From: a virus
Reading direction: 5' to 3' (one strand)
DNA length: 43,253 bases
IMG/VR virus record: IMGVR_UViG_3300028831_000428
Span: 1 to 43,253 of that record
In this document: in pieces, positions 1-38,474 of the stretch
Layout of the letters: every line of letters starts with the position of its first letter
Position numbering within the stretch: the first letter of the stretch is position 1
Notes under the pieces: generated by a model
What the model saw: only the letters and a program-made list of their open reading frames with translations
Databases searched by the model: none
What the model was told of the DNA's origin: nothing
Made by a program: the position numbers and the translations under genes

Positions 1-141
1 CGGTTGGTACCTCGGATTCACAGGTTATCATGAATAAGACAATTGGTAATACCAATACATTCACCTCCAAGGATAGCTTATTCACTTTGCAGGATGACAG
101 CGACACGACAAAACAGGCTCAGTTTCAACTGTCAGGTATTA
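1..141. repeat. Terminal redundancy, identical to 43113-43253. Either circular closure of the assembly or a short direct terminal repeat.
   Basis: Read directly: cggttggtacctcggattcacagg...caactgtcaggtatta is present at both ends of the window. Confidence 0.95.
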
Positions 142-860
142 CAACTGGGACAACACGCACATATACCCTACCAAACGCCTCTAGTACTCTGGCGGACATA
201 TCGACAGTCCAGACACTTACTAATAAGACGCTGACTTCGCCGACTATCACCGGTGGAACGATCGACAATTCTACTATTACCGTGGACTCTATATCTGGTC
301 ACACAAGCGCGACGGTTGTGACAGTGGCTGGGTTGCAGATAAGCAGTGGCGTTTTAAACACAAACAACTCAGTTGTTACCGCGAACATTGCAGATAGTGC
401 CGTTACACCCGCAAAACTTCTTGCGGGGACTGGGTCAACATATGTCTGGCAGTCTTTTACTGTAACCTGGACAAACTTAACGATTGGAAATGGCACTGCC
501 ACAGGCCAGTACTCACAGATTGGCAAAACTGTCCGCTTTCGTATGAAGACTGTACTTGGTTCAACCAGTGTCATAGGGACAGATCCATCGTTTACGCTTC
601 CTGTAACCGCCAATTCAAATACTGGATCTCGACCTACCATCCCATATGGGCAATCGCTCTACTTCGATACATCGGCATCGGCATTCTACTTTGGGCCTGC
701 CGGTGTGCCTGTGTCAACATCGGCTACGGCTAACTGCCAGCCCTTCGTCTCTAACGTATCGGCCACATATGCTACGTCCTCGGGCTACACCGCGACCATA
801 CCCGTAGCCTTTGGAACGGGAGATGAGATATATGTCACTGGTAGCTATGAGGCTGCGTAA
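30..860 (+). CDS. Tail fibre protein, C-terminal part. The gene really starts at 42971 and crosses the junction.
   Basis: Same frame as 42971-43253 through the 141-bp overlap. Ser/Thr/Asn-rich with [11 protein letters not shown]-type motifs common in fibres. Confidence 0.7.
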
Positions 861-1762
861 TGATTACCTGGACAGATAGCTACCAAAAAACACAGCGGTT
901 AGCTAGGGATGATACCTCGGGCACGTTGACACAGCTAAAACAGGACATGAATACTGGCTATCAGCTATTTAATGCGAAGTTGGCTCGGTACTATACGCGT
1001 AAGCAGCAATTTACTAGTCTGGTAGCCAATCAACAGATATATCAGACACCTATCGACTGTGTGCGCATATCGGGCATGACTGTGATGGTAAGCAATACAT
1101 ACCAACCGCCCGTCAAAGAGGTGCGGAGTGAGTACCAGTGGCGAGGTATTACGTCATATCAACAAACGAGTAACTGGCCTGCTTGGTATTTCATGATTGG
1201 TAATGATGAGCTCGCGCTGTGGCCTGTGCCTGCCCAGAATGTGACAAATGGGCTGAGATTCTATTACCAGCCAACAGCAGTTGATTTGTCTGTCGATGAT
1301 ATTACCTCGACAGGTACGGGCGCAACAGTGAGCGTGACGAATGGGTCGGCTACAGTTACCGCGTCGAGTAGCGTGTTTAACTCGAGTTTGGCGGGGCTAT
1401 CCTTCCAGGTGATGGGTGAGATAGACGATACGGCTTATGAGATCGTGGCCGCATCAGGAGCAACCTTAACACTAAAATCGGCATATGTTGCCCCTTCTGG
1501 ATCCGGCAAGGCATGGCGGATCGGACAATTGAGTATCCTGCCGCCGCAATACGTTGATGCGCCAATGCACTATGCACTCGGCAATTACTTTTCGTCCCAA
1601 GGTAATGAACAGCGCAGCCAATTCCACATGGGTGTATTCAATCAGTTGCAGCAGGACTGTGAAGAAGAATACTCGAGCAGTATGTCTAGCAATGTGATTT
1701 CTGAGGATGATATGTATTTAAATCCCTGGTTGGTCCCACCAGTCCCAGGACCATTGACTTGA
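860..1762 (+). CDS. Virion-associated protein, function unknown
   Basis: 300-aa ORF. Its start overlaps the upstream stop (TAATG). Lies in the tail/virion gene block. Confidence 0.6.
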   Translation: MITWTDSYQKTQRLARDDTSGTLTQLKQDMNTGYQLFNAKLARYYTRKQQFTSLVANQQIYQTPIDCVRISGMTVMVSNTYQPPVKEVRSEYQWRGITSYQQTSNWPAWYFMIGNDELALWPVPAQNVTNGLRFYYQPTAVDLSVDDITSTGTGATVSVTNGSATVTASSSVFNSSLAGLSFQVMGEIDDTAYEIVAASGATLTLKSAYVAPSGSGKAWRIGQLSILPPQYVDAPMHYALGNYFSSQGNEQRSQFHMGVFNQLQQDCEEEYSSSMSSNVISEDDMYLNPWLVPPVPGPLT

Positions 1763-1763
1763 T

Positions 1764-3722
1764 ATGGCAAAGAAACCATGGATTATATCAAACTTCTCGG
1801 GTGGCTGGGCAACTGACAAGAAGGTTGGTCCACCTAACTCGTTTGCTTATTCGCAATCAATCGATTTTCGCAAATCGCCTTCACAGGTAACCTTATTGTC
1901 GAGAACGGCCCGTGAGGACAATAAGGTTGTTAGAGATTTGGTCCAGAATGCGGTGATGATAAGTGATGGCTCAATATTCTCGCTAGGGAGTAGCGGTTAT
2001 TTTTATAAACGTGCCACTAGCGGGGCTTGGTCGGTAGCAGGTAATCTACCGCCTGGTTATTTTGGCCTTGCCTATCGTCAGGACCAGAATGCCATATATA
2101 TTGCTCACGCTAGGACGGTAAGTCTGTACGGTCAAACAAATGGCACGGCAATATTACAGCCAAATCTATATAATATATCCCAGTCAACCTACAACAATAC
2201 AACAAATACCGGATTTAATGTTAATACCAATCAATCGAATAGTGTTAATACGACGACGGTTACAACATCTTATACAGAATCGGCATTGCAGTCACGGTAT
2301 TTTCAGACAGATATTGAGCCACTTAACAAACTGTCTGTATACGTATCTGATAAAGGAACGGGTAACTGGACACTCACATTGCATGATGGGTTAAACACCT
2401 CTCTGGGCACAGTGACAATGAGTAATGCTAATCTGCAAAGTAACGCCTGGAATGATTTCACTTTCTCTATGCCAATTAGAGTACAAGTAGCGCCAGCCGC
2501 ACAGACATACCACTTTCATCTGACATCAACAGTAGCAGACGGAACAGTTACATCATCGGCTACAAACGACCTGAGCAGCTGTGACATGCAGTTATGGGCG
2601 GATCGGCTGGTACAACCAATCAATGGTATGCATCCGATTGCCAACTTTCAGCAATTCATTTGTATTGGCAATGAGCATTATCTGAGCGTATATGAGCCAC
2701 TGGGGGAGGCGCAGCCATCTAATAGTTCATGGCAGCGACATAAATTGACCTTTCCGCCTGGGTACGAGGTGTGTGGTCTGGCAGTCTTTAACGAATATCT
2801 GGCTATTGCTTGCGAAAAGAGTAGTAGCGCGTCGAATACGCCACAGGACGGTATTATATTCTTCTGGGATGGGCTGAGCTCGACCTACAACTACTTTACC
2901 TTGGTACCAGAGGGGTCACCTTATGCAATTCATCAAAACAAAAATATTCTCTATTACTATGCGGGAGGAGCGTGGTATGTCATGGCATCCGCTAATTCAC
3001 AGCCGGTCAAAATACGGACAATGCCGTTTGGCGAGAATGCGTATAATAACAACAACGATTCAACCAAGATTTATCCCTACGCGGCAACGGTGCGCAATGG
3101 TGTACAACTAATGGCGTGGCCGTCGGTATCGACAAACACGAATATCCAATTTGGGGTTTATTCCTGGGGTCAGGTGGACAAGAACCTGCCAAATTCATTC
3201 GGCTACAGCTATCTGTTGAGTACTGGGTCACAGACGTATTCGGGTAGTAACAATTTGAGTATTGGAATGGTGCAGAATTTTGGGGATAATTTGTTGATCT
3301 CTTGGCGTGATGATCTGAACGGCGGCTATGGGGTTGATGTAGTTAATAGCAATTCTAAGCCCGCGTCTTTTGCCACTCTGCAGACCCTTATTTATGACGG
3401 TGGATACGTGGGCAAGGACAAAGAGGCGAATTACATGGAGGGGACATGGTTGCCTTTACCGAATGGCGTAGGAGTTGAATTGATGTATTCGATCAACCGA
3501 GGGAGCTTTAATGTATCGAATCGGTTCACGAATGCGAATACTTGGCAGGACGCTCAGAATTATGCACGGACAAGCATGTTTGGTAGTACAAATAGGCAAG
3601 GGAGATTTAATGAATTGCAGCTAGGAATAAATATTTATTGTGATGATACGGTGACTGAGAGCCCGACGATCACCAGCCTGAGCACGGTTATTGACACGCT
3701 TGCGCAGGAAGCATTGCAATGA
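1764..3722 (+). CDS. Large virion (tail/baseplate-type) protein, function unknown
   Basis: 652-aa ORF tightly packed after 860-1762. Asn/Ser/Thr-rich. Confidence 0.6.
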   Translation: MAKKPWIISNFSGGWATDKKVGPPNSFAYSQSIDFRKSPSQVTLLSRTAREDNKVVRDLVQNAVMISDGSIFSLGSSGYFYKRATSGAWSVAGNLPPGYFGLAYRQDQNAIYIAHARTVSLYGQTNGTAILQPNLYNISQSTYNNTTNTGFNVNTNQSNSVNTTTVTTSYTESALQSRYFQTDIEPLNKLSVYVSDKGTGNWTLTLHDGLNTSLGTVTMSNANLQSNAWNDFTFSMPIRVQVAPAAQTYHFHLTSTVADGTVTSSATNDLSSCDMQLWADRLVQPINGMHPIANFQQFICIGNEHYLSVYEPLGEAQPSNSSWQRHKLTFPPGYEVCGLAVFNEYLAIACEKSSSASNTPQDGIIFFWDGLSSTYNYFTLVPEGSPYAIHQNKNILYYYAGGAWYVMASANSQPVKIRTMPFGENAYNNNNDSTKIYPYAATVRNGVQLMAWPSVSTNTNIQFGVYSWGQVDKNLPNSFGYSYLLSTGSQTYSGSNNLSIGMVQNFGDNLLISWRDDLNGGYGVDVVNSNSKPASFATLQTLIYDGGYVGKDKEANYMEGTWLPLPNGVGVELMYSINRGSFNVSNRFTNANTWQDAQNYARTSMFGSTNRQGRFNELQLGINIYCDDTVTESPTITSLSTVIDTLAQEALQ

Positions 3723-4132
3723 GCGAGTATGGACCTACTGGCAGCGGTTACGGCGAAGTTAAGATTGATTCAATCCGTGACAATCCGGTAGATGGCGGTG
3801 ATATTGGGAGGGTACTGCCACGACAGGTTTCGACAGGATCGACACGTGGAACGCAGACTGTGGGATATGGTGACACCAAAATCGATGGGTCAAATAATGT
3901 CATCACTGTAGGCAGTAGTATAGTTGTCGATGGTAGCGCGAGCTTGATAACAGTAACTAATAGCGATAAATCAAAAATTGGCATGGGTCGTATACCCAAT
4001 ACGAGCCAGTTTGGGTTCTTTGCCACTAATAATGCTGGTGTTGTGATTATGAGCATAGTTGCCGGCACGCTGATCATGAATGATACTACAACCGATCGGG
4101 TGTTGATCGGCAAAGACCCTGGGGGGTTCTAA
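3719..4132 (+). CDS. Small virion protein
   Basis: 137-aa ORF with a 4-nt overlap on the upstream gene. The antisense ORF 3748-4113 is judged a shadow. Confidence 0.55.
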   Translation: MSEYGPTGSGYGEVKIDSIRDNPVDGGDIGRVLPRQVSTGSTRGTQTVGYGDTKIDGSNNVITVGSSIVVDGSASLITVTNSDKSKIGMGRIPNTSQFGFFATNNAGVVIMSIVAGTLIMNDTTTDRVLIGKDPGGF

Positions 4133-4890
4133 TGGCCGATTACGGTGCTAAGGCGTCTCTACCTGGTTTTGACATTAATACAGTTGTCGACTATCTGCAG
4201 TCATTTAATTCATCATGGCCGCTGTTAAAGGTTGGAATGACGGGCGTTTATACAGGAATCGTCACTCATAATTTGGGCTATCCTCCGTTTCATCTATTGG
4301 CCACTGCAGATGGTAGGCTTGACCAATCTGCTGGGTTAATTGGTACCTATGGTGCTAACTCAGCTGTCTTGAGGCAGGCATCTGGTGCTGGAAACCAGCG
4401 GTATTATATATGTCGCCTTGATCTGACACAGGCTTTTGATGCGCCTATCATAGCAGGCGGGTCGATTCCGGCAGCTGTGGATAGGGATTATGGAATAAAG
4501 GTGGCGAAGCCGGGAAAAAGCATAAGGTCAACTGATATGCGCGATTTTGCGCTCAACTCGAGTGCGAGGTCATTAATGGTCCACAAAGTGAGACCTATCA
4601 CGCCAGTTTTAAGCGGTGCTAGCTTCATCGCGACAGTTCCGCACGGACTGCCCTATATACCGATTGCATTTGCCTATGTATTACCAGGCATTAACTTGTT
4701 GGGACTGGATATCGACAAGTATTATATTGTACCCCCACCAATTGGAGTTGCCGGTGCTTCATATACTGTAGATGCTACAAATGTCACTGTGACCATAGAT
4801 GCAACCCAGTTTGCTCCGACCCCACCAGTATCCGTGGTCGTCCTGAAAGACCCACTAGCAAAAACTACTATAAACATAAGCTATCCATGA
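4132..4890 (+). CDS. Virion protein, tandem paralogue of 4887-5312
   Basis: N-terminus MADYGAKASLPGFDI aligns with MNDYGFKVSLPGYDV of the next gene. Confidence 0.6.
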   Translation: MADYGAKASLPGFDINTVVDYLQSFNSSWPLLKVGMTGVYTGIVTHNLGYPPFHLLATADGRLDQSAGLIGTYGANSAVLRQASGAGNQRYYICRLDLTQAFDAPIIAGGSIPAAVDRDYGIKVAKPGKSIRSTDMRDFALNSSARSLMVHKVRPITPVLSGASFIATVPHGLPYIPIAFAYVLPGINLLGLDIDKYYIVPPPIGVAGASYTVDATNVTVTIDATQFAPTPPVSVVVLKDPLAKTTINISYP

Positions 4891-5312
4891 ACGATTACGG
4901 ATTCAAGGTATCACTACCAGGATACGATGTAGGGTCAGCCACACCAGAGCAATGCGCGGTGCATTCGTCTTATCCACCTTTTAAGTCCAAGACAAATCAA
5001 AATCCGCCACATTTTGCCACGGTAAGCGTTGATTTCACAGGGGTGATTACTCAAGACTTGACGCAGACGTTATATTCGATAAGTCATGGCTATAGTTATA
5101 TACCATTTACAATTGCCAATATTGTCTTTGTTGATTCATCTGGTGGTACCGAGGTCGGTATAGGGTTTGCTGGCGTGGGGTCAACGCTGGCAATCAATGC
5201 CTACTGCGATTCCACTAACTTCTACGTGACAATCTACGATAATTTTAACTGGACAGGTGCAAATGCGACGCTAGACGTATCATACTATATATTTTGCGAA
5301 GAGGGTACGTAG
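4887..5312 (+). CDS. Virion protein, tandem paralogue of 4132-4890
   Basis: Shared N-terminal motif with the upstream gene. ATGA overlap with it. Confidence 0.6.
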   Translation: MNDYGFKVSLPGYDVGSATPEQCAVHSSYPPFKSKTNQNPPHFATVSVDFTGVITQDLTQTLYSISHGYSYIPFTIANIVFVDSSGGTEVGIGFAGVGSTLAINAYCDSTNFYVTIYDNFNWTGANATLDVSYYIFCEEGT

Positions 5313-5315
5313 TGC

Positions 5316-5358
5316 TACAATTAGGGTAACAGCGGATTTTCCCCATTCATTTGGGGAA
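5316..5358 (+). promoter_or_regulatory. Late promoter plus leader hairpin module, copy A
   Basis: TGCTACAAT (-10 at 5316-5321), then 6 nt, then AACAGCGG (5328-5335). Stem TTCCCC (5339-5344) / GGGGAA (5353-5358). ATG at 5362. Confidence 0.55.
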
Positions 5359-5361
5359 TTA

Positions 5362-6120
5362 ATGAATCCAGCCAACTCTCAAGATGCTTTAACTCAATTG
5401 CAGCAGACCCAAGCCGGAGCCAAGAGTGCTGCGGATATTCTGAATGCTCAGAAACAGCAGTATGGGGTGCAGGCCGCTCAGGACACCGTCGGAGGACTGC
5501 GTAGTGCTATTACCAATACAACCAGACTATTAAATCAGGTTGCCCCATCTGTTATGGGACGAACTGCTAATTCATTGGTAACTTCTGCCCAGGCGAATAG
5601 GCAGATTGCTAATGAGCAGCAACCAATTGCCCAGAATCTGAGCCAGCAGACCCAAGATTATGGGAATGCTCAGAGTGATTATGAAAAAGCTCTCCAAGAG
5701 GCAACAACCGGCGCCAATATGGAATATGGTGATCAGCAGAACAAGTTGAGCTATATGCAGAACCTGTATAACACCCTCTATCAACGCGAGGAGAATGCAA
5801 GGCAGGCGGCCGCTCAGGAGGCTGCAAGACAAGAGCAAATTAGACAATTTAATGAACAATTAGCGGCCAGCCGAAAGAACGCAGCAGCGCAACTAGCACT
5901 ACAAAACCGTCCTACTACTATATCTGTTGGCAATAATGATCAACAGGCAGCGATATTAGCCGAGGCTAGACGTCAGGCATCGAAGATGGCAGCTGCCGAA
6001 GTGCCAGCAGCTCAGGCTGCTTCAAAGCAGGCAAGGGATCAAGTGAATAATCTGAGCGGCTTTAATGGGTTCTTGAATTACATCGGTACTAAAGGACCGA
6101 TGGCTTTGTTTGGATTATAG
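5362..6120 (+). CDS. Gln/Ala-rich coiled-coil-type virion protein (internal/ejection or assembly role possible)
   Basis: 252-aa ORF of low complexity, Q/A-rich. First gene after module A. Confidence 0.5.
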   Translation: MNPANSQDALTQLQQTQAGAKSAADILNAQKQQYGVQAAQDTVGGLRSAITNTTRLLNQVAPSVMGRTANSLVTSAQANRQIANEQQPIAQNLSQQTQDYGNAQSDYEKALQEATTGANMEYGDQQNKLSYMQNLYNTLYQREENARQAAAQEAARQEQIRQFNEQLAASRKNAAAQLALQNRPTTISVGNNDQQAAILAEARRQASKMAAAEVPAAQAASKQARDQVNNLSGFNGFLNYIGTKGPMALFGL

Positions 6121-9062: not shown

Positions 9063-9285
9063 CAGGGTTCAATCTCCTTAACATTGCTTCGTGCTCCATT
9101 CTGGCTTGAGTTGCGATATCAAGGGGATCTAGAAAGATACTCTTGTCTTGTGACTCAGGCTTTTGTGCATCAGTCTTTTCTTTGATAGATTCTTGAAGAT
9201 TGCTGAGCATCTTTTTTAGTTGGTTATATTTGTAGCCAGTGTAGAAAGCTATGACTATGGCGATTATGAACGCCAGTTCTGTCAT
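9055..9285 (-). CDS. Small membrane protein (N-terminal TM)
   Basis: 76 aa with hydrophobic stretch LAFIIAIVIAFYTGY. Its start overlaps the groEL stop. Confidence 0.6.
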   Translation of the reverse strand: MTELAFIIAIVIAFYTGYKYNQLKKMLSNLQESIKEKTDAQKPESQDKSIFLDPLDIATQARMEHEAMLRRLNPDE

Positions 9286-10850
9286 TATTCTTCCTTAGCG
9301 TCCTCAAAAACGATGAGAGTATCCGTAGTCAGCATATCTGTGGCGCTGGCGGTGGCGTTTTTGATGATTTGCTGGACAACGAGGGCGGGGTCGATGATGC
9401 CCGTCTTGACCATATCAACTAGCTCGCCTTTGCCTCTGAGGTTAAAGCCGTGACCGGTGGGAGCTTTCATGGCTTCGTCTAGTTTTAGCTCTGCTGGCAG
9501 ATTGGCGTTAAGCAGGAGCTGCTTGAAGGTGTCACGAAGTGCCTCGCTGTAGGGAGAGCTGATGTCTAACTTGCTAAGCTCGAGCAGAGCAATGCCACCG
9601 CCTGGGACAATACCGGAGGTGTAGGCCGCACGGGTGGCATGGATAGCATCTTCGACCCGGAACTCGACTTCCTCTTTGACACTATCTGTGGCACCGCCGA
9701 TACGAAAGAGGGCGATCTTGCCTTCGAGCTTGGCGACACGGTCTTTCATCTTCTCGGCAACAGCATCTGATACCTCTGTTTCGATTTGGTCACGGATTTC
9801 TTGGATACGTGTTTTTACGGCTTCTGTGTCATTATTGGCAAATAGAGTAGATTCATTCTTGTTAGCCACGACTTTATCCACAGACCCTACACAGGATGTA
9901 TCAAATTCTCGAAGGTTTGATCCCTCTGTCAGTGGGTTACATTGTGCATAAATGGCAATGTCTTCGAGCAGGTATTTGCCCATCTCGCCAAACATAGCGG
10001 GGGTCTTTAGGATAACTGCATCAACTTTACCCTGATTGATGAAGTTAACTGCTGTCATATAGGCTGCTTCCTCTATATTGCCGATCAGGAGGAAACGAGG
10101 AATACCATCAGTCTGGGGGTTGAATTTGCGGGCTTGCAGGGCTTTGGTCAAGACGTCAGCGATGTCAGCAGCAGAGGTAAGGCGACGAATGGAGACGATA
10201 ACGAAGGGATCGATCAGCTCTTTCTTGCCAGCCTGGAGCGCTTGAAAGCCGGTTTGTAGGTAGTAACCATCGACATACTCGCGCTCGATGTCGTCGACCG
10301 GAGCTTTCTCAGTAATGATCCCGCCTTCGGCACCGACCCGCAGGACTGCATCAGCGATTAGCTCACCGAGCAGGGGATCGCCGGATGAGATAGTGGCGAC
10401 TTCTTTGAGTTGGCTGTCTTTGACCTTTTTGGTCATTGTGTCAAGCTTATCGAGGACTTTGTAGCTGTCCTGAAGGAACTGCTGTTTGACTTCCATTGGG
10501 TGCATACCGGCAGCGATGGCTAGTGTGCCACGTTGCATGAGGTGATAGGCAAGCGCGACCGTGGCTGTCGTGCCATCACCAGCAATGCGGTTAGTTGTTT
10601 CAGAGGCTTCAAGGACACGCTGGGTGCCCATGTTCTTTGGACGGTCAGATAGGTAAGTGTCACGGGCAACTGAGACACCATCGCGGGTAGTCAGGGGACG
10701 GCCAAAGGGCTTTTCAATCATAACATTACGGCCGCGTGGTCCGTAGGTCGAGGTAACAGCGTCGTAGACGAATCGGGCACCGGCTAGCAGCTCGGCGCGT
10801 GCTTGGTCGCCTTTAATGACGATTCTGTGGTCTTTTTTTGCTTGGGCCAT
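9285..10850 (-). CDS. groEL: Chaperonin GroEL (Cpn60), full length
   Basis: Motifs YGPRGRNV, DGTTTATV-like DGTTATVA, AVILKTPAMFGEMGKYLLEDIA (compare AVKAPGFGDRRKAMLQDIA) and GGGIALL. ATG at 10850 behind AAGGAG; the track start 10865 is an upstream TTG. Confidence 0.9.
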   Translation of the reverse strand: MAQAKKDHRIVIKGDQARAELLAGARFVYDAVTSTYGPRGRNVMIEKPFGRPLTTRDGVSVARDTYLSDRPKNMGTQRVLEASETTNRIAGDGTTATVALAYHLMQRGTLAIAAGMHPMEVKQQFLQDSYKVLDKLDTMTKKVKDSQLKEVATISSGDPLLGELIADAVLRVGAEGGIITEKAPVDDIEREYVDGYYLQTGFQALQAGKKELIDPFVIVSIRRLTSAADIADVLTKALQARKFNPQTDGIPRFLLIGNIEEAAYMTAVNFINQGKVDAVILKTPAMFGEMGKYLLEDIAIYAQCNPLTEGSNLREFDTSCVGSVDKVVANKNESTLFANNDTEAVKTRIQEIRDQIETEVSDAVAEKMKDRVAKLEGKIALFRIGGATDSVKEEVEFRVEDAIHATRAAYTSGIVPGGGIALLELSKLDISSPYSEALRDTFKQLLLNANLPAELKLDEAMKAPTGHGFNLRGKGELVDMVKTGIIDPALVVQQIIKNATASATDMLTTDTLIVFEDAKEE

Positions 10851-10851
10851 A

Positions 10852-11016
10852 CTACTCCTTGTCAACTTTCTTATCTAATTCGTGTCTGATTGTCTCCAGG
10901 ACATTTAGATGACCAGCTAGGCCTTGCATCTCATCGGACGGTACGTCGCTCTTCATTATCTCCACCTTTAGGGCGCCGATCAGCTCGTCTAGGGTCAAGC
11001 CGATGGGTATGATCAT
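10852..11016 (-). CDS. 54-aa ORF between the co-chaperonin-like gene and groEL
   Basis: Not in the ORF track (<60 aa). ATGA overlap with the upstream stop; its TAG lies 1 nt before the groEL ATG. Confidence 0.45.
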   Translation of the reverse strand: MIIPIGLTLDELIGALKVEIMKSDVPSDEMQGLAGHLNVLETIRHELDKKVDKE

Positions 11017-11413: not shown

Positions 11414-11452
11414 AAAGGCTGTCCTTAGCCGTGGAGTCTAAGGACAGCCTTT
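11414..11452 (-). promoter_or_regulatory. 15-bp perfect hairpin in the 5' leader of the chaperonin operon
   Basis: AAAGGCTGTCCTTAG (11414-11428) pairs with CTAAGGACAGCCTTT (11438-11452). The loop is 9 nt. Confidence 0.6.
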
Positions 11453-11480: not shown

Positions 11481-11510
11481 ACGTTAGCACAAACAGAACA
11501 AAAATAGAAC
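11481..11510 (-). promoter_or_regulatory. 30-nt promoter/operator block, minus orientation, facing the GroES/GroEL operon
   Basis: The reverse complement reads GTTCTATTTTTGTTCTGTTTGTGCTAACGT, matching the block at 38490-38519 at 26 of 30 positions. Confidence 0.5.
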
Positions 11511-11522: not shown

Positions 11523-11571
11523 TGATATAATAAACCTAACAGCGGAATTCCCCTATCACAGGGGAATTTTT
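11523..11571 (+). promoter_or_regulatory. Late promoter plus leader hairpin module, copy B
   Basis: TGATATAAT (-10 at 11526-11531), then 6 nt, then AACAGCGG (11538-11545). Stem AATTCCCC (11546-11553) / GGGGAATT (11561-11568), then TTT and ATG at 11573. Confidence 0.6.
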
Positions 11572-11572
11572 G

Positions 11573-11698
11573 ATGTCTACAACCAAACGCAAAAAAGAAA
11601 CACGCACAAACCCAGAAACTGGTCTAAAAGAGGAGCGCTATGAGGGCGATACATTCTGGGTGGCAACTATTAGCGCTACGGGTGGCTATCATGACTAA
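11573..11698 (+). CDS. Small basic protein (41 aa)
   Basis: The ATG sits where copy G has its ATG (shared GATGTCTACAA). Its stop overlaps the next ATG (ATGACTAA). Not in the track (<60 aa). Confidence 0.45.
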   Translation: MSTTKRKKETRTNPETGLKEERYEGDTFWVATISATGGYHD

Positions 11699-13131: not shown

Positions 13132-13794
13132 ATGGCACAAAGACCATTCATAGGACCAGTTGATATTACACAGGAGTATGGCAATCCAGATCCTACTGCT
13201 CGTCGTGGCTACCATACCGGAGTCGACTATGGCATGAACACGGGATCACCGATTATCGCCCCGGAATCAGGCCGAGTAGAGAGCGGTGACGGGCGCGCGC
13301 CGAGCGATGGACGTGGCTTTTACGTCATTGTCTATGGTGACAGTGGCACGGCGCACTGTCTGTACCACCTAAGCCAAATTGGTGTTGCCGGTGGACGCGT
13401 TAGTGAAGGCGAGCAAGTCGGCTTGTCAGGAGCCACAGGGCGGGCTACGGGACCGCATTTGCACTGGGAGACACGCCGGGCACCATTTGATGGGTACAGT
13501 GACTATGCGCCAGCAACGTGGTTGTTTGGTAACAAGCAAACCCCAGCGCCTGCACCAGCCCCATCATCATCGCAGATTGTTTACTTGCCTGCTGTCCCGC
13601 AGTGGCGTCTATACAATGAAGGTGGACCATACACCATCGGTACCGAGAAGGCATTGTTGGCACCTGCTAAATTTGGTGGACTGAGCTATCAGGTTTTGGG
13701 TACGCCAGTTCCTAATGTGGTGGTTATCCAGACCCAGATGTTTGGACGGGGAGCAATTTATGTTGGTCCTGGTACGGGTGCAGTAATAAAGTAA
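13132..13794 (+). CDS. M23 (LytM-type) peptidoglycan endopeptidase, probable endolysin
   Basis: HxxxD motif (YHTGVDY) and HxH motif (GPHLHWE). SD AAAGGAG upstream. Confidence 0.85.
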   Translation: MAQRPFIGPVDITQEYGNPDPTARRGYHTGVDYGMNTGSPIIAPESGRVESGDGRAPSDGRGFYVIVYGDSGTAHCLYHLSQIGVAGGRVSEGEQVGLSGATGRATGPHLHWETRRAPFDGYSDYAPATWLFGNKQTPAPAPAPSSSQIVYLPAVPQWRLYNEGGPYTIGTEKALLAPAKFGGLSYQVLGTPVPNVVVIQTQMFGRGAIYVGPGTGAVIK

Positions 13795-15542: not shown

Positions 15543-16427
15543 ATGAATATTTTTTCTAAGAAAATGCAGATGGTTGACATGCAAATAGCCGAATACCTGA
15601 ATTGGTGCGAGTTCAATGCTATGATGACATGCTCAACAATGGTCACAAAGAGAAAGGCTATCGAACGGTTTTTATCTGTTAATCCAAATATAAACGATCT
15701 ATCAAAACTTACGAACGAACAATTCGATCAGTGGAGAGCCGACCTAGCAAAGGGCGGACTGGCCGGAAAGACCATTAACAACTATGCTGATCATATTACC
15801 GGGGCTATCAGATTCCTAAGAGATCGTAAAGAAGTGAGAGTGGCGATAAATCTGAACAAGATTGACCGAGCTATGGAGAGAGATGGCGAAATGCCTTACT
15901 TCACTCATGACGATATGATGTTGATAAAACAAAATTGCTATGGTCCACGTGAGAAGATTCTAATATCGCTCCTGTATGATTCTGGCCTACGGATATCAGA
16001 GGCGGCTAACTTGAAGATCAAAGATGTCAAGGAGTGTACAGTCACGATTATCGGCAAGGGCGGTAAACGTCGAACGACATTCATACTGCCAGAGACGCGA
16101 CAGGAATTAGATAAGTGGCTTCATCTGAACGATATCACTGATGGATATATCTTTCCATCGCCGACGAAATTCGGGGAGCCACTAAGCATTCAACAGATTA
16201 GGTCGTCCATTAATTCACCGATCAACAGAGCTGGACTGAAAGGAAGCGCACATACAATCCGACATAGTTTCACCACGCGTCTAATCGATGGTGGCGCGGA
16301 CATTCTTACCGCAAGCGCGGTGTTGGGGCACGCGGACACCCGAACTACGCAAGGGTACTACCACCGCCACATCGATACATTAGCGAAAAAGTTCGAGTCA
16401 GCCATGAGCGTATTGACAAAAGCCTAG
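15543..16427 (+). CDS. int: Tyrosine recombinase / phage integrase (XerC/D-like)
   Basis: GLRISEAANL (Arg I), AHTIRHSFTTRL (HxxR), LGHADTRTTQGYYH (His plus the catalytic Tyr region). Confidence 0.9.
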   Translation: MNIFSKKMQMVDMQIAEYLNWCEFNAMMTCSTMVTKRKAIERFLSVNPNINDLSKLTNEQFDQWRADLAKGGLAGKTINNYADHITGAIRFLRDRKEVRVAINLNKIDRAMERDGEMPYFTHDDMMLIKQNCYGPREKILISLLYDSGLRISEAANLKIKDVKECTVTIIGKGGKRRTTFILPETRQELDKWLHLNDITDGYIFPSPTKFGEPLSIQQIRSSINSPINRAGLKGSAHTIRHSFTTRLIDGGADILTASAVLGHADTRTTQGYYHRHIDTLAKKFESAMSVLTKA

Positions 16428-16529: not shown

Positions 16530-16584
16530 GAGCGCGTCCTTGCCAAGGACGAGGCCGGGGGTTAGAGTCCCCCGACCCGCACCA
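16530..16584 (+). other. tRNA-Gly(GCC) 3'-half-like segment, candidate attP core
   Basis: Anticodon arm CGTCC-TTGCCAA-GGACG (16535-16551), T arm GGGGG-TTAGAGT-CCCCC (16557-16573), acceptor 3' strand GACCCGC, then A and CCA (ends at 16584). No matching 5' acceptor strand. Confidence 0.55.
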
Positions 16585-19673: not shown

Positions 19674-20038
19674 TCGAGAGGTTGTGCAAGTCGTGTCATA
19701 AGAACATGAAGGCTTACTCCACAATCCAAAACAAATGCCCTGATTGCCTAAAGAAGACCTACAAGCCAATCCCGAAGAGGGGTAAGGCGACCAAGGTATA
19801 TGAGGTGTGGCGAGATAAGATAGCAATTCCTTACTTGACCAACAGATTTGGCTACGTGTGCTCGATGCAAGGGTGCATGGTTAGCTCGAATCTGGATGTG
19901 GATCATATACAGAAACGCGGGTCGCATCCGGGACTCAAGATGGACGTGCATAATGTTCGATTCTTATGCCGTCAACATCACAGGAAAATAACTGATCAAA
20001 TTAAATGGAGTAACTCAGATGGGTACAAGAACAACTAA
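19670..20038 (+). CDS. HNH endonuclease
   Basis: N-terminal CKSC...CPDC zinc ribbon, then DVDHIQKRGSHPGL...HNVRFLCRQHH. Confidence 0.7.
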   Translation: MIERLCKSCHKNMKAYSTIQNKCPDCLKKTYKPIPKRGKATKVYEVWRDKIAIPYLTNRFGYVCSMQGCMVSSNLDVDHIQKRGSHPGLKMDVHNVRFLCRQHHRKITDQIKWSNSDGYKNN

Positions 20039-20255
20039 TCGTGAATTCGTTATTACGTTCATTCATAGCGATACATTGCAGGCAGTCGCCGAAAGCCTGG
20101 GTGTAACCGTGACGGCGGTGCGTATGAGAGCAAGGAAGTTGCGTAGCATGGGTGTCAGACTTCCAGAGAAGTCAACAATCAGTGAGAAAGATATAGAAGT
20201 GACCGAGCTTAACAACCTGATTGCTCAGTTGAAGAAACGGCAACCAAAGGGATAA
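20019..20255 (+). CDS. Small HTH-type DNA-binding protein
   Basis: 78 aa. The stretch LQAVAESLGVTVTAVRMRARKLR is HTH-like. Confidence 0.55.
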   Translation: MGTRTTNREFVITFIHSDTLQAVAESLGVTVTAVRMRARKLRSMGVRLPEKSTISEKDIEVTELNNLIAQLKKRQPKG

Positions 20256-25478: not shown

Positions 25479-25905
25479 AGTTAAGTTTCGAGTTTCAGCT
25501 GGTCAGACCACAGTAGGCTACGAATTACTAGCTTATGGCTCATGGAAATTCAAAGAAGTAGATGGGGTGTACAAGTTCGGAACGTTTGGCGGCAAGTCGT
25601 ATGCCCGCTGGCAGTTCACCGGCCTAAAGGATAAGAACGGAACAGAAATTTACAAAGGGGATATTCTGACTGTAAAACAATCAAATGTCGATGATAATTA
25701 CCGTGCTGTTATAGAGTTCGGCTGGAATGATTTTGGCGAATATGGCTTTTATTGGCTAAGTGGATTTGCCGGTCGAGAACTAAAAAAGGGTGCCGTCATA
25801 CGAGATGTAGACCAAGTTTCCGAGAGGTATGAAGTCATCGGTAACATCTACGAGAACCCAGAGCTTCTAGAGCAACCCCAAAAGGAGAAAGCAGAAGATG
25901 AGTAA
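25471..25905 (+). CDS. YopX-family protein
   Basis: QFTGLKDKNGTEIYKGDIL and YEVIGNIYENPELLE are typical YopX signatures. Confidence 0.8.
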   Translation: MNKVKFRVSAGQTTVGYELLAYGSWKFKEVDGVYKFGTFGGKSYARWQFTGLKDKNGTEIYKGDILTVKQSNVDDNYRAVIEFGWNDFGEYGFYWLSGFAGRELKKGAVIRDVDQVSERYEVIGNIYENPELLEQPQKEKAEDE

Positions 25906-27045: not shown

Positions 27046-27108
27046 GTGGGTAGAAAATAGAACATAAATGGAACACTCCTCTTAACATACAGGCGGATTT
27101 CAGGCATC

Positions 27109-27501
27109 GTGGGTAGCAAAGATTTCAATCCTGACATAGGTAAAAACACACAGTATAGGCCTGGTGAATCGGGTAACCCCGCTGGGAAGCCAAAGGGGGC
27201 TCTACATCTGTCGACGCATATACAGAACCTCTTAAATGACCCGGAGTTTACGACATGGGTGACTGATCCGAAGGAGGGCTGGAAAGAGTACACTGGTGCT
27301 CCTGTCAAAGCGATTATTAGGGTGCTGATCATCAAGGCGATGGCTGGCGATGTGAAGGCCTTTGATGCACTGGGTAAGTATGGATACGGCACGAAGTTAC
27401 AGTTGAGTAATGATCCTGAGAACCCTGTTAGTGCTCCTGCGGATCCAGCCTTGACTGCTAAATGGACCGAGTTCTTGAAGAACGAAACGCACGATGGCTA
27501 A
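27109..27501 (+). CDS. terS: Terminase small subunit candidate
   Basis: Lies directly upstream of and overlapping terL. The motif GESGNPAGKPKG resembles the NPxGRPKG motif of many small terminases (from memory). GTG start. Confidence 0.6.
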   Translation: MGSKDFNPDIGKNTQYRPGESGNPAGKPKGALHLSTHIQNLLNDPEFTTWVTDPKEGWKEYTGAPVKAIIRVLIIKAMAGDVKAFDALGKYGYGTKLQLSNDPENPVSAPADPALTAKWTEFLKNETHDG

Positions 27502-29095
27502 CCTCGATTCCCTCTCTCCTACGGCGTGGATAGTAGCGAACGGAATCATCAATGAAAACCAGCAACCTATCGAGTTCAGGAATCATCGCTTCTTGATTGA
27601 TCCGTTCGATGATATGCATAGCGATATCGTCGTAAAGAAGTCGGCGCAGGTGGGGTTTAGCGTGCTAGCGATCCTCAAGTCTTTTTGGTTGGCGAAATAT
27701 AAAAACCTGAATACAATCTATGTGCTTCCAACCCAGGATATTGTGAAGAGCTTTGTGAATCCTAAGATTGATCCGTTGATTGCCTCCAATGACGCTATCC
27801 AGAAGTTCGTTAGCAAGGACTCAGTAACACTCAAGCAGATCGGTGACAGGTTCATCCATTACAAGGGGTCTGCTAGCCAGAGAGAAGCTATTAGCACCTC
27901 GGCTGATCTGTTGGCGATTGATGAGTATGACCGGTGTATGGATATGAATGTGCTGAATACCTACGACTCACGCCTGCAGGCCTCTGAGTATGCCTGGCGC
28001 TGGCGCTTCTCTAACCCGAGTGCGGTGGGGTTTGGGGTTGATTCACTGTTCCAAGACTCGGATCAGCGGCATTGGTTCGTGAAGTGTCACCACTGTGGAC
28101 ATCGGTGGTTCATGGACTTTGAGAAGGATGAAGCATCGAAGGCCCATTATGTTGATCAGAAGGCTAAGGTGTACGCCTGTGGGAAGTGTCATAAGGCTAT
28201 AGACGATGCAGACCGCCGTAATGGTGAGTGGATCGCTAGGTTCCCATCGCGTAACAGACATGGCTATTGGTTCAGCCAGATGATGGCACCCTGGGTGACG
28301 GCCGAGCGTATCCTTGAGCAAAAGGAGGAGTCGAGCATTGATTTCTTCTACAACTTTGTGCTGGGTAAGGCTTATACCCCAAGTGACATGGTGGTGAACC
28401 GCGAGACGATCTTGCGCGCCTGCGCTCCTAGCAGCATCCCTCGCATCAACGTAGCGATTGGGGTGGATCAGAACGTGTCTGAGCAGATTTGGGTGGCTGC
28501 AACGGCTCAGGGCGTGTTTGCGCACGGTAAAGCCAAGAGCTGGGAGGAGATCGAGCACCTGAAGCTGATGTATAACGCTGTGGTGGTATGTGACCCAGCG
28601 CCTTATTCGACTATGCCAAAGAAGATGGCGGCGAAATATCACGATTGGTACCTCTGTTATTTCAAGCAGATGGATGGTATGGAGATTCTGCAGTGGAAGG
28701 ATAGCGTGGTATACGCGGATCGCACGCGTTTACTCGATACTGTGGCGACAGAGATTGCTGAGGCCAGGCTGCTGTTCCGTGAGCGGCCGTATGAGCTGGA
28801 GGACTACATTAAAGATTGGCAAAATATTTACCGGACGACTGTCGAGAAAGAGGACGGGCGTGTTAAAAGTGAGTGGTTAAAGAAGGAGGGACAGCTGAGT
28901 GATTTTAGTTTTGCAACGGCATATTGCCGTATAGGGCTGAGTCGTGTTTTGGGCGGCGTATCAACATTCATCGAGCCGCAGTTCGATGGGAGTAGTGCGC
29001 CGATAACAGACACGGTTACAGAGGACGGGAGATATCAAACAACACTAGATAAGGCCGTGGAGGACACCTTTGAAAGGATGGATTATGGAGCGTGA
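27494..29095 (+). CDS. terL: Terminase large subunit, lambda GpA-like
   Basis: KKSAQVGFS resembles the gpA Walker-A-like KSARVGYS. Internal CHHCGH...CGKCH zinc ribbon. 533 aa. Confidence 0.85.
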   Translation: MANLDSLSPTAWIVANGIINENQQPIEFRNHRFLIDPFDDMHSDIVVKKSAQVGFSVLAILKSFWLAKYKNLNTIYVLPTQDIVKSFVNPKIDPLIASNDAIQKFVSKDSVTLKQIGDRFIHYKGSASQREAISTSADLLAIDEYDRCMDMNVLNTYDSRLQASEYAWRWRFSNPSAVGFGVDSLFQDSDQRHWFVKCHHCGHRWFMDFEKDEASKAHYVDQKAKVYACGKCHKAIDDADRRNGEWIARFPSRNRHGYWFSQMMAPWVTAERILEQKEESSIDFFYNFVLGKAYTPSDMVVNRETILRACAPSSIPRINVAIGVDQNVSEQIWVAATAQGVFAHGKAKSWEEIEHLKLMYNAVVVCDPAPYSTMPKKMAAKYHDWYLCYFKQMDGMEILQWKDSVVYADRTRLLDTVATEIAEARLLFRERPYELEDYIKDWQNIYRTTVEKEDGRVKSEWLKKEGQLSDFSFATAYCRIGLSRVLGGVSTFIEPQFDGSSAPITDTVTEDGRYQTTLDKAVEDTFERMDYGA

Positions 29096-29357
29096 TCTAC
29101 GGTATAGGATATTGGTTAACTTGGTACGGACTGACCGGCCGAGGTATTGGACGTGGCACTGCCCACACTGCCAGTTCCCCGTAACTGAGCTGGTGAATGA
29201 TGAAGTGCAGTCGATGACGGATTTCTTTGACATGCGTAATACTGATAAGCGGCTGGTTGGTCATCGGTGTGGTGGGCGTAGTCCTACGGGGATTGGGCGG
29301 TGTGACTTTTGGTATTACTTTAACTTGAGTGATAAGCCGCCAAAGGGCGTAGTTTGA
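29085..29357 (+). CDS. Small zinc-ribbon protein
   Basis: CPHC...HRCGG...GRCDFW. ATG 29085; the track uses TTG 29070. Confidence 0.55.
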   Translation: MERDLRYRILVNLVRTDRPRYWTWHCPHCQFPVTELVNDEVQSMTDFFDMRNTDKRLVGHRCGGRSPTGIGRCDFWYYFNLSDKPPKGVV

Positions 29358-29391: not shown

Positions 29392-29547
29392 ATGAAGCGT
29401 ATAATAAAAATAATGCCGGCGGTTCAACTGTACTGGCTATGCGAGTTCTGTGGTAAGCCGAATCCGTGGCCACAGAAGAGGGCACGGAAGTATTGCAATA
29501 AAAGTTGTCAGGATAAGGCGTATTATGCGAGAAAAAACTTGGCGTGA
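29392..29547 (+). CDS. 51-aa zinc-ribbon protein
   Basis: Not in the track. CEFCGKP...YCNKSCQDKAYYARK. Confidence 0.5.
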   Translation: MKRIIKIMPAVQLYWLCEFCGKPNPWPQKRARKYCNKSCQDKAYYARKNLA

Positions 29548-29767
29548 CTTTGTCGATATGAGCAAGCCAGACGATAAACTGGCGGTGTATATTGACGATG
29601 CTATCGCAGATGGCTGGCCGCAAATTGGTGGGTCTGATCCAAAATGGGTTGTACTGCACGGTGAGTTGATTACTCGTAATAACAAGTTCGCTGAGCGAGT
29701 GGTTGTTGAGGATATTGAGGCATATTATAGGAGGAAGAATGAGCGACTGGAAAAAAGACATCAATAA
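29525..29767 (+). CDS. Hypothetical protein
   Basis: ATG 29525 inside the track ORF 29450-29767. Confidence 0.5.
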   Translation: MREKTWRDFVDMSKPDDKLAVYIDDAIADGWPQIGGSDPKWVVLHGELITRNNKFAERVVVEDIEAYYRRKNERLEKRHQ

Positions 29768-29978
29768 AATACTTGCTCCCTATCTATTGCCTGAGAGGAG
29801 AGTCTACGTAGTCCCCTACGATGTGTGGCAAACGGTGGCTGGTATATATGCAGAAAGCAATCCCTCGCCAACTGGGATGGAAAAAAGTCATCCAGCCTTC
29901 ACTGCGATGAGACACCCCACCAATAATTATCCAGTAGTTGAGTATGCGCCGTATATCTTCATGGAATTGGGGGTTTAG
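29739..29978 (+). CDS. Hypothetical protein
   Basis: ATG behind AGGAGGAAG; the track starts at 29703. Confidence 0.6.
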   Translation: MSDWKKDINKILAPYLLPERRVYVVPYDVWQTVAGIYAESNPSPTGMEKSHPAFTAMRHPTNNYPVVEYAPYIFMELGV

Positions 29979-29979
29979 A

Positions 29980-30216
29980 ATGGCAAAAGCTAAACTATCA
30001 TACTATCAGCGCGCAATGATTCATGATGATTTAGATAAGATGGTTGACTGGGCGGTCGATGCATGTAATGGCAACATCGTCGGGAAGGCACATATAATTC
30101 CTCAGATTCAGATCGGTGACTGCATCTTTAGATTCACCATTGAGCCAGTATCCTTTGGCGAGAGGACGACGAAGATTTATGAGAAGAAGCTGGGGTTGAA
30201 GAATAATGGCAAGTGA
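29980..30216 (+). CDS. Hypothetical protein
   Basis: ATG 29980; the track starts at 29938. Confidence 0.55.
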   Translation: MAKAKLSYYQRAMIHDDLDKMVDWAVDACNGNIVGKAHIIPQIQIGDCIFRFTIEPVSFGERTTKIYEKKLGLKNNGK

Positions 30217-30439
30217 TTTAGATAAACTGCTGGCTCACGCATTCCGGCCAGCCGTAAGTTGTTTTATTGCTGAAAAAGTATCTCAAGAAGAGGGAGATTT
30301 GCTCTTTACAGATGCAAAGAGAGATATCAAGGCGTTATTTATGAAACTAATAGGTGAGACAAATTCGTTTGAGTCTGCAAATACGGGCAGAGTCTGGATA
30401 GACCCAGATGATTTAGAAAAAAGGGTTCATAAACTATGA
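30206..30439 (+). CDS. Hypothetical protein
   Basis: 77-aa ORF. Confidence 0.55.
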   Translation: MASDLDKLLAHAFRPAVSCFIAEKVSQEEGDLLFTDAKRDIKALFMKLIGETNSFESANTGRVWIDPDDLEKRVHKL

Positions 30440-32596: not shown

Positions 32597-32626
32597 AGCC
32601 TAGCTAAAATAGAACAAAAATAGTAC
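32597..32626 (-). promoter_or_regulatory. 30-nt promoter/operator block, minus orientation
   Basis: The reverse complement GTACTATTTTTGTTCTATTTTAGCTAGGCT matches 38490-38519 at 24 of 30 positions. Confidence 0.4.
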
Positions 32627-38450: not shown

Positions 38451-38474
38451 TAACATACTGCTACATCGAATAGG

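Follow-up and report, generated by a model that had tools for sequence, protein, structure and literature searches.

The window analysed here, which is the whole 43,253 nt of IMG/VR virus record IMGVR_UViG_3300028831_000428, contains six copies of a promoter-plus-leader cassette. In each copy a -10 hexamer is followed at fixed spacing by a hairpin, and all six copies head operons whose predicted products are late proteins. The stem of this hairpin covaries among related phages, and its position depends on its own promoter and not on the operon upstream. The interpretation favoured here, tentatively and with rather less than even confidence, is that the hairpin acts in cis as a 5' leader, capping the mRNA of the operon and influencing its first ribosome-binding site, and that the run of T (U in the RNA) that often follows it provides at most partial attenuation. 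The original prediction of this element had named three mechanisms, i.e., an antitermination target, a translational gate and a 5' stabiliser; sequence analysis does not decide among them, and the mechanistic readings are not mutually exclusive.

Architecture of the six cassettes

The copies (c1 to c6, all on the + strand) share a single order: a -10 hexamer, exactly 6 nt, then A-A-(C)-(A)-G-C-G-G (AACGGC in c4, AAGCGG in c5), then a hairpin with a TTCCCC-like 5' arm and a GGGGAA-like 3' arm, an A/T-rich run and the start codon. In five copies the first start codon lies 4-7 nt past GGGGA, and in the capsid copy c4 the hairpin is followed by a further 41 nt with its own AGGAG. This architecture had been claimed for six sites and was present at all of them with its spacing intact; the placement of the transcription start on the AAC, proposed at the same time, is consistent with the distance from the -10 to the A at a sigma-70/sigma-A promoter. 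Three details required correction. A TG at -15/-14, said to occur in most copies, was present in three of six (c1, c2 and c6); the T-run was found in c2 to c6 and was absent from c1; and the supposed lack of any other Shine-Dalgarno sequence (SD) in five copies does not hold for c2, where the next real gene has its own GAGGAG.

Copy c1 (5316-5364) has the -10 TGc-TACAAT (hexamer at 5316-5321) and a predicted +1 at A5328. Its leader AACAGCGG (5328-5335) precedes the hairpin TTCCCCA (5339-5345)/TGGGGAA (5352-5358), which is followed by TTA, without a T-run (GGGGAATTAATG), and by the ATG at 5362. It heads a 252-aa and then a 605-aa gene, folds at -11.4 kcal/mol and scored 17.9 bits with the covariance model described below; the N-terminus of the downstream protein is conserved from ATG 5362 in two related sequences (L143 and L144). 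Copy c2 (11526-11575) has TGa-TATAAT at 11526-11531, a predicted +1 at A11538, the leader AACAGCGG (11538-11545), the hairpin GGAATTCCCCT (11544-11554)/AGGGGAATTTT (11560-11570) and an ATG at 11573 that opens a 41-codon open reading frame (ORF) only, which is not conserved (-13.8 kcal/mol, 29.3 bits). Its operon continues with the GAGGAG-preceded gene at 11640, a tail-fibre-like gene at 11972, a holin-like gene at 12868 and an M23 endolysin at 13132, ending at a plain terminator (14397). Copy c2 sits in a divergent intergenic region and has no co-directional gene upstream.

Copy c3 (32624-32683), which heads the portal gene and a 302-aa gene, has TACAAT at 32624-32629, a predicted +1 at A32636, the leader AACAGCGG (32636-32643), the hairpin ATTCCCCAT (32646-32654)/ATGGGGAAT (32668-32676), TTTC and a TTG start at 32681 (-18.1 kcal/mol; 17.4 bits, outside the training set). 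Copy c4, upstream of the major capsid gene (35707-35817), is the only copy with a good -35 (TTGACT, 35707-35712, 17 nt spacer); GATAAT (35730-35735) and a predicted +1 at A35742 are followed by AACGGC, the hairpin ATTCCCTAACT (35748-35758)/AGTTAGGGAAT (35763-35773), TTTCTT, the AGGAG SD (35805-35809) and ATG 35815. The whole c4 leader folds at -27.5 kcal/mol and the cassette scored 14.5 bits, again outside the training set. Relative to the other copies, its stem carries a C-to-T and a G-to-A change that compensate one another. Copy c5 (39602-39652) has TATAAT at 39602-39607, a predicted +1 at A39614, AAGCGG, the hairpin TCCCCGGA (39623-39630)/TCTGGGGA (39635-39642), TATTTTT and ATG 39650; it heads a 220-aa gene, a 215-aa gene and then a beta-helix tail fibre gene (40960), with values of -14.1 kcal/mol and 17.8 bits. 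Lastly, c6 (42740-42789) has TGg-TATAAT at 42740-42745, a predicted +1 at A42752, the leader AACAGCGG (42752-42759), the hairpin GGAATTCCCCT (42758-42768)/AGGGGAATTTT (42774-42784) and ATG 42787 (29.3 bits). It heads a 64-aa gene, in an operon that crosses the circular junction into the tail or internal protein genes at 30-5312.

The stem starts 12-17 nt past the -10 in the window and 5-14 nt past it in relatives. Among the six copies, loops of 4-13 nt vary in both length and sequence, such that the stem is conserved and the loop is not. The six hairpins have folding energies between -11 and -18 kcal/mol, at least four G-C pairs and z-scores of -2.3 to -5.2. The pattern TTCCC-N5-25-GGGAA occurred six times against 0.65 expected, and five of these occurrences were cassette copies. 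Of the 22 copies that went into the covariance model (32 positions, 10 pairs), 19 came from other genomes; c3 and c4 were left out and the -10 was not included. In a filter-free scan of both strands of the window, exactly the six copies ranked first. The model found no copy in the early block (14.4-26.6 kb), nor onward to 32.6 kb, and Rfam 15 produced no match at the gathering score anywhere in the window. With copies ahead of the portal, capsid, tail/fibre and lysis operons and none in the early region, the earlier view of a dedicated late-operon element was borne out.

Covariation and conservation among related phages

About 35 related IMG/VR contigs were collected through capsid, tail-protein and terminase searches, with capsid identities of 60-96%. 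Scanning these (660 kb) gave 70 model matches at E <=0.5, all on the coding strand. Among 66 distinct matches from the window and its relatives, 65 had a -10-like hexamer ending 7-14 nt before the GGA that precedes the stem (mode 9; 12 in the clade of the window). Upstream of every capsid gene, relatives have a sigma-70-like promoter (often TTGACA or TTGCAT, 16-18 nt, TAtaaT), and then, 6-10 nt past the -10, A-G-(A/C)-G-G-A, which leads into a GC-cored hairpin and T5-8; an A/U-rich spacer separates these from AAGGAG and the ATG. The hairpin was present in each of 29 distinct regions upstream of capsid genes in the window and its relatives, in one case with a mismatched stem.

More than 15 different stems were found among these regions, and their sequence varies by genome (GGACAGCCC, GGAACGCCC, GGAAGACCC, GGATAGCCC, GGAGTCCCC and, in the window, TTCCCC). 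RNAalifold gave no structure on a plain MAFFT alignment, where the arms were out of register, and stems were re-aligned with the covariance model instead. After re-alignment, 86% of cells were paired, compared with 74% in shuffles (none of 500 shuffles reached 86%), and both sides had changed in 78 cells where 29.5 were expected. The covariation score was 0.314, against 0.04-0.075 for controls in which partners were slid, and three central pairs had changed on both sides in 21-27 sequences. Covarying stems in relatives had been proposed as a check by the original prediction and were found. Because the stems covary, selection acts on the structure of the stem and not just on its sequence.

Two further regularities concern the promoter and the GGA. 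Of 165 distinct coding-strand sites with a hairpin and T-run, 46 had a promoter-like site directly upstream (9 in the shuffled control), three had one downstream and seven had one further upstream; promoter before hairpin is the prevailing order. Almost every module (61-63 of 64) has the GGA immediately 5' of the stem, and this GGA was present at 36 of the 46 promoter-preceded hairpins, compared with 10 of 76 promoter-less terminators. The genes downstream are orthologous between genomes (portal, capsid, a 245-aa post-capsid gene and an 82-aa gene). In terminase-centred loci of relatives, there were no + strand matches in ~32 kb upstream of the terminase gene and seven downstream.

The possibility that the cassette is a general feature of the host, or of TM7 phages at large, was rejected, as the model found nothing in 40 kb of contigs with a matching tRNA-Gly (three of five from Saccharibacteria metagenome-assembled genomes, MAGs) and nothing in the oral TM7 phage DolZOral124. 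The latter has a lone promoter, CCCCC/GGGGG hairpin and ATG at the homologous divergent region. A search of IMG/VR with the exact motif AACAGCGGNNTTCCCC gave 110 single matches at chance level, none with a hairpin. Two observations on related leaders are recorded here. Portal leaders of several relatives (L139 6921-6946, L134 2327-2355, L132 5266-5291 and others) have the string gtaat(n)taACAGAGGTA in common, 3' of the U-run; it resembles the 5' tail AACAGCGGA of the window's clade, on the opposite side of the hairpin. Early promoters of DolZOral124 (L156, MG269973; ~25560-25580, 27210-27230 and 29690-29710) share ATGCGCTCGTGTATAAT, an extended -10, and have no leader hairpins.

A proposed leader hairpin acting in cis

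The main reason for favouring a leader function is a comparison with the sister contig IMGVR_UViG_3300012354_000003 (capsid 96% identical), of which L111, L143 and L157 are parts. All six of its cassettes keep the -10, AGCGGA and the CCCC/GGGG hairpin, and the T-run is present at the capsid copy only; the remaining five lack it (GGGGAATAAAC, GGGGAAAAATG, TTGGGGTTTAAATG, GGGGAATTATAGTG and the homologue of c2). Since the sister retains its hairpins without a T-run at five of six sites, and c1 lacks one also, the U-run seems dispensable in the window's own clade. For the window and its sister, then, termination could hardly be the indispensable part; what has been kept is a putatively transcribed hairpin at a fixed place, near the first start codon. 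Two arrangements suggest that the hairpin serves its own transcript: c2 has no upstream gene to terminate, and the portal cassette of one relative (L112) has a separate, plain terminator ahead of its promoter already. It also appears to be tied to its own promoter, because it is spaced from the -10 and not from the upstream stop codon. A further point in favour is how near the 3' arm comes to the first start codon in the clade (3-9 nt in most non-capsid copies, and overlapping the ATG in the portal copies of L112 and L115), with protein N-termini that are conserved from these starts.

On this evidence, a host promoter of the sigma-A/sigma-70 type would start a transcript with A-A-C-A-G-C-G-G-A, and a stable hairpin, its 5' arm rich in C and its 3' arm rich in G, would take shape within the first 10 nt of this RNA. 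The hairpin would act in cis on the RNA of its own promoter, capping the 5' end of the operon mRNA and protecting it against 5'-end-dependent decay, by analogy with the leaders of T7 gene 10, E. coli ompA and B. subtilis aprE, in which 5'-terminal protective hairpins are known. With an SD-like GGGGA in its 3' arm, it would set the ribosome-binding context of the first cistron as well. The U-run may represent the ancestral, family-wide state, probably contributing partial promoter-proximal attenuation here and not an essential switch. If transcription starts at the seventh nucleotide past the -10, the helix begins 0-3 nt from the 5' end in most relatives, whose predicted transcripts begin A-G-A-G-G-A or A-A-G-G-A. 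Such a short tail would be what a 5'-terminal protective hairpin requires; an attenuator as such would not need it.

Several points weigh against a leader function of this kind. From the predicted start, the window copies leave an unpaired 5' tail of 2-11 nt, which is long for a classical 5' protective hairpin. The U-run looks selected, and a GC stem followed by U6-8 has the look of the host's own terminators, which favours real termination; to place a terminator behind a capsid promoter of near-consensus sequence would carry a cost if nothing bypassed it. Hairpins of -11 to -18 kcal/mol that cover an SD should depress translation of the first gene. Stability alone does not explain the conserved tail AACAGCGG and the invariant GGA, which a protein might read.

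Possible promoter-proximal termination and its bypass

The main rival, less probable than the leader function, is regulated termination some 30-45 nt past the start, with a phage factor providing late read-through; this would place the logic of lambda pR'-tR' and Q at every late promoter. Late operons, including the lysis genes, would then be silent in the lysogen and in early infection, and the factor would perhaps recognise the AG(N)GGA leader or the hairpin. In most of the family, where near-consensus TTGACA/TTGCAT-17-TATAAT promoters are paired with canonical GC stems and T6-8, the simplest reading of a strong promoter with a canonical terminator behind it is attenuation close to the promoter, which has to be bypassed late. 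The preponderance of promoter-then-hairpin over the reverse order (46 to 3 of the 165 sites) agrees with this, as do the concentration of GGA at promoter-preceded hairpins and the restriction of the cassette to late operons. The phage is temperate, with an integrase and attP, so its late promoters need to be blocked. In Pseudomonas phages, measurements at terminators close to promoters gave more than 90% premature termination (PMC10914365).

The U-run itself provides the strongest signature of termination. In the window, c2 to c6 have four or five T, and their tail scores (-3.9 to -4.4) resemble those of the operon-end terminators at 14397, 16605 and 26811; across the family, 61 of 64 modules have at least four consecutive T, a count to be read with the model's own preference for T-runs. 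Of 64 modules, 61 have a U opposite the first G of the GGA and 59 a U opposite the second; a C stands opposite them in 1 and 4 modules. Because these partners are U and not C, pairing has not been optimised, and the U-run looks to have been selected in itself across the family. A selected U-run would be the signature of an intrinsic terminator; a U-rich tract for binding the ribosome or S1 is an alternative. In the sister genome, the one copy with a T-run is also the one copy with a consensus -35. A general correlation between a strong -35 and retention of the U-run was considered and set aside as a hint only: it is true of the capsid copies, but in the window a T-run is retained by four copies whose -35 is weak.

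Termination as an option, which the original prediction had included, is nonetheless weakened for this clade by the five sister copies that lack a U-run, among them the copy at the lysis/tail-fibre operon, and by c1. No factor for its bypass was recognised either. Around 65 ORFs were scanned with PHROGs and/or Pfam and none matched a family of Q, N, NusG-like proteins, antiterminators, sigma factors or RNA polymerases, in keeping with the earlier statement that no Q, sigma or RNA polymerase gene was recognisable. The initial transcribed region contains no conserved -10-like pause element; what is conserved at the start is AACAGCGGA or AGAGGA, and TAnnnT strings are sporadic and confined to variable loops. 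No cis antiterminator fold was predicted in the leader, which has no room for one; hence a bypass of any kind would have to be provided in trans. Pairing at long range between AACAGCGG and a downstream CCGCTGTT was rejected as a general device, since the latter occurs only 40 nt into the portal gene and at chance level.

One candidate regulator was a basic 90-aa protein encoded directly after the large terminase (29085-29357), next to the first late cassette. It has four invariant cysteines (C26, C29, C62 and C73), is conserved in the loci of 25 relatives and was represented by 18 homologues; its AlphaFold model is confident (pLDDT 82.5) and all-beta. It belongs to no Pfam or PHROG family and gave no PDB fold match with E <1, which counts against the presence of an antitermination factor here; as a candidate late regulator, this Cys4 protein, judged from its model, has no support either way.

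Late control could also proceed independently of a terminator. A 16-bp direct-repeat motif, AGAAC-N6-AGAAC, occurs five times in the window against 0.74 expected, each time at a late promoter, and is probably the site of a late activator or repressor; as such it offers a putative late-control route of its own, which further detracts from antitermination. The first copy (11495-11510, + strand) lies over the -35 position of c2, between two divergent promoters, and is conserved upstream of the c2 homologue in the sister (L143). The second (27059-27074, +, two mismatches) lies 8 nt upstream of a -10-like TAACAT, with ACAGGCGGATTTC next and no hairpin, and this promoter precedes GTG 27109 of the gene upstream of the large terminase. 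The third (32611-32626, +, one mismatch) fills the spacer of the c3 promoter and overlaps its -10, while the fourth (35692-35707, inverted, - strand) abuts the -35 of the capsid promoter c4; both are conserved in the sister (L111). The fifth (38490-38505, inverted, - strand) lies between a plain terminator-like hairpin (38473-38492) and a TATACT -10 (38514-38519), 8 nt ahead of the latter. This last region (38473-38519) is the sole classical terminator-then-promoter arrangement in the late region, and the gene that follows starts at 38510 or 38528. The TATACT is 8 nt before ATG 38528 with no SD between them, such that a leaderless late transcript may arise; ATG 38510 is the alternative start.

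Doubtful to a slightly greater degree is the fuller proposition that this family of phages of candidate-phyla-radiation (CPR) bacteria has a promoter-proximal terminator for each late operon, bypassed by a factor unlike Q, N, NusG paralogues or sigma, which would recognise AG(N)GGA plus the hairpin in nascent RNA or DNA.

Possible roles in translation, punctuation and exchange

An unlikely explanation is a translational gate, in which the 3' arm hides the GGGGA or start codon of the first gene and is opened by a phage factor, by temperature or by a standby ribosome. A variant would be a split ribosome-binding site, with the looped-out hairpin bringing the 5' GGA to within 4-9 nt of the start codon; split sites of this kind are known from T4 genes 25 and 38. 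Start codons of the clade's non-capsid copies mostly follow the 3' arm by 3-9 nt. In the portal copies of two relatives (L112 and L115) the ATG falls within the 3' arm itself, and the c2 homologue of the sister (L143) pairs UUUUCC with the GGAG of its SD, without a U-run. In some 20 modules of the family the U-run leads directly into a start codon, and no other SD is present. The capsid leader, too, is predicted to form another hairpin (35786-35795 with 35804-35814), where pairing of ACTTTCCCTG with CAGG-AGAAAG would bury the AGGAG SD; TTCCCTG and CAGGGAG could pair likewise in the sister genome. However, the hairpin can occlude the first cistron only, and an operon-wide gate, as the original prediction might be read, is unlikely because downstream genes carry AGGAG sites of their own. 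Around 40 modules, including all capsid copies, have an exposed AAGGAG 10-30 nt downstream and still keep the hairpin and GGA, and the first ORF after c2 is the non-conserved one of 41 codons.

It is more improbable again that the cassette is punctuation, i.e., that the hairpin and U-run end the upstream operon and the promoter restarts transcription, their unusual order being a result of compaction. At most sites the cassette does fill the whole gap between co-directional operons with no other terminator present, and RNA polymerase is reported to re-initiate near a terminator after RNA release (PMC6978380). Yet neither c2, with nothing co-directional upstream, nor the L112 portal cassette, with its own plain terminator in front, has anything to end; the spacing of the hairpin is from the -10 and not the stop codon; and the terminator-then-promoter order, which would carry no cost, exists here and is used once (38473-38519).

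Very little probability was given to a recombination or mobile cassette, comparable to the PeSL elements of T4-type phages, whose copies would be alike mainly through exchange and would provide junctions for module shuffling. Copies c2 and c6 agree at 55 of 60 positions in a stretch that opens with the -10 hexamer and takes in the first nine bases of two unrelated ORFs, stem variants are shared within genomes (four GGATAGCCC in L120, four GGACAGCC in L113) and the phage encodes an Erf recombinase. In the sister contig (L111, 6400-6880), the insertion of an ORF of ~470 nt for an HNH-type endonuclease falls exactly between the hairpin of the portal cassette and the portal start, and the GTG with which the portal gene begins there overlaps that ORF at its end. 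Against this, cassettes occupy orthologous positions (portal, capsid and post-capsid gene) in genomes with 60-96% capsid identity, so they have been inherited vertically; covariation of the stem reflects selection on structure and not recombination homology; and PeSL stem-loops lie upstream of or over their promoters and flank early ORFans (PMC2839356, PMC4122927). Least probable of all is that the terminated RNA of 30-45 nt is itself the product, as an abundant regulatory RNA with a conserved, single-stranded 5' seed (AACAGCGG or AGAGGA) or a sponge for a GGA-binding protein: a seed, terminator hairpin and U-tail do match minimal small RNAs, and short RNAs derived from 5' untranslated regions (UTRs) are abundant in phiKZ (PMC10914365), but the cassette is always fused to an operon start with the start codon adjacent, the U-tail has been lost in the sister genome and no target complementarity was found save the single chance-level CCGCTGTT.

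Genome and probable host

The window represents a complete phage genome, assembled as a circle of 43,112 bp with a GC content of 48%; bases 1-141 are identical to 43113-43253, and these 141 nt are the assembly overlap of a circular or terminally redundant genome. The early block carries genes for the Erf recombinase, HNH nucleases and an RNA ligase, and the integrase gene lies at 15543-16427. An HTH-like protein of 78 aa is encoded at 20019-20255. Other identified genes encode the large terminase (27494-29095), a P22/SU10-like portal (32681-34768, 695 aa, TTG start), the major capsid protein (35815-36888), the beta-helix tail fibre (40960-42723) and the M23 endolysin (13132-13794). Between the terminase and portal genes (29450-32569) are approximately ten small ORFs, including an HNH/endonuclease VII-like gene (31249-31803); these are missing from almost all relatives, in which the 90-aa gene abuts the portal cassette, and the region has the appearance of a hot spot for insertions.

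The minus strand (9285-10865) carries the gene of a GroEL/Cpn60-like chaperonin (526 aa), and a chaperonin gene occupies the same minus-strand position in DolZOral124 and in at least seven loci of relatives. The leader of the chaperonin operon contains a perfect 12-bp palindromic hairpin (11417-11449, -21 kcal/mol), located 5-7 nt past a -10-like TATAAA/TAAATT and before AGGAGG-GTG; its arm CTAAGGACAGCC is the consensus 5' arm of the relatives' cassettes.

Directly 3' of the integrase gene is an attP-like core (16533-16583), corresponding to the 3' 55-60 nt of tRNA-Gly(GCC); only this 3' part, and no full tRNA, was found in the window. Three Saccharibacteria/Saccharimonadales genomes (MAGs) have a complete tRNA-Gly whose 3' part is identical to a 39-nt string of this core. 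Part of the core recurs on L152, a contig of 35.7 kb that carries the label Pseudofrankia sp. BMG5.36 and may be either a related prophage or contamination. By capsid protein, the closest GenBank phage is the TM7 phage DolZOral124_53_65 (MG269973; 38% identity), which has the chaperonin-terminase-portal-capsid layout in common with the window. The host is probably a Saccharibacterium, one of a group of ultra-small bacteria, because the attP core matches its tRNA-Gly and the closest relative is a TM7 phage. No near-identical phage was found in GenBank, and a capsid-protein search of 185,000 genomes returned no prophage relatives.

Comparison with known systems

Almost nothing is known of gene regulation in phages of Saccharibacteria or other CPR bacteria. 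The cassette offers a family-wide grammar of late genes, comprising a host-type promoter, a predicted start site, an invariant GGA, a covarying hairpin and a U-run, in dozens of independent examples, and it marks late operons and gene orientation in contigs that could not be annotated otherwise. If it were a true regulated terminator, the family would conceal an antitermination factor of unknown kind. If it were a true 5' cap, it would be a compact, natural promoter-plus-stabiliser part, and elements with a hairpin and U-run that software may call as terminators need not be operon ends, which matters for the annotation of metagenomic phages.

The lambda pR'-qut-tR' region also has a host-type promoter and an intrinsic terminator ahead of the late genes of a temperate phage, i.e., a block that needs to be bypassed. 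Lambda has one late promoter, a DNA element bound by Q, a sigma-dependent pause at +16/+25 and a terminator further downstream. In contrast, there are six cassettes here, no Q homologue, no conserved pause element and a hairpin that begins between +2 and +10. A terminator downstream of a constitutive-type late promoter exists in form in most relatives and in c4; the other window promoters lack a -35. A nut site of the boxA/boxB type, as used by N, has a conserved boxB loop bound by an arginine-rich peptide, whereas cassette loops vary freely. The cassette has the GC-rich stem and short loop of an intrinsic terminator, but does not stand at the 3' end of a transcription unit.

What the 5' stabilisers and the cassette share is a purine-rich 5' terminus that forms a hairpin right where an abundant mRNA begins. 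Capsid copies, moreover, continue with an A/U-rich spacer and a strong SD, and the SD-like AGAGGA or AAGGA stands without a start codon, as in polypurine or SD-like stabilisers such as the cryIIIA STAB-SD and the polypurine element of phage SP82 (PMC3997798). Stabilisers differ in being single cases with no U6-8 tract after the hairpin, and the window copies have a longer unpaired tail. The PeSL elements are repeated, intergenic combinations of a sigma-70-like promoter and a stable stem-loop, followed by an SD and start codon, with copies that are alike within a genome and a possible role in module exchange (PMC2839356, PMC4122927). Their stem-loop precedes the promoter, sits between its -35 and -10 or covers the -10, and terminates incoming transcription from outside its own RNA; they flank early ORFans in hyperplastic regions, whereas the hairpin here is downstream of the predicted start and belongs to late core genes. 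The SAS/ESAS elements of cluster K mycobacteriophages combine a short motif and an imperfect inverted repeat just upstream of some start codons. Unlike the cassette, SAS includes the ribosome-binding site, has no fixed promoter spacing and is not limited to operon starts; it is not known to have a function.

Premature terminators within 5' UTRs, some with more than 90% termination, were mapped in Pseudomonas phages by ONT-cappable-seq (Putzeys et al. 2024, PMC10914365). These too lie directly downstream of a promoter, so that the transcript either stops short or enters the genes, and terminators of phiKZ have a C-rich/G-rich stem motif followed by TTAT. They were mapped from transcripts, in virulent phages with partly phage-encoded polymerases, and yield RNAs of 70-250 nt, while the present element is known from sequence alone; nor were they described as one cassette before each late operon. 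The cassette differs from them again in its hairpin 0-10 nt from the predicted 5' end, its fixed spacing and its invariant GGA. By these comparisons it resembles a mixture of known systems while appearing to be a member of none, and points to a handling of late mRNA that is undescribed but not unprecedented.

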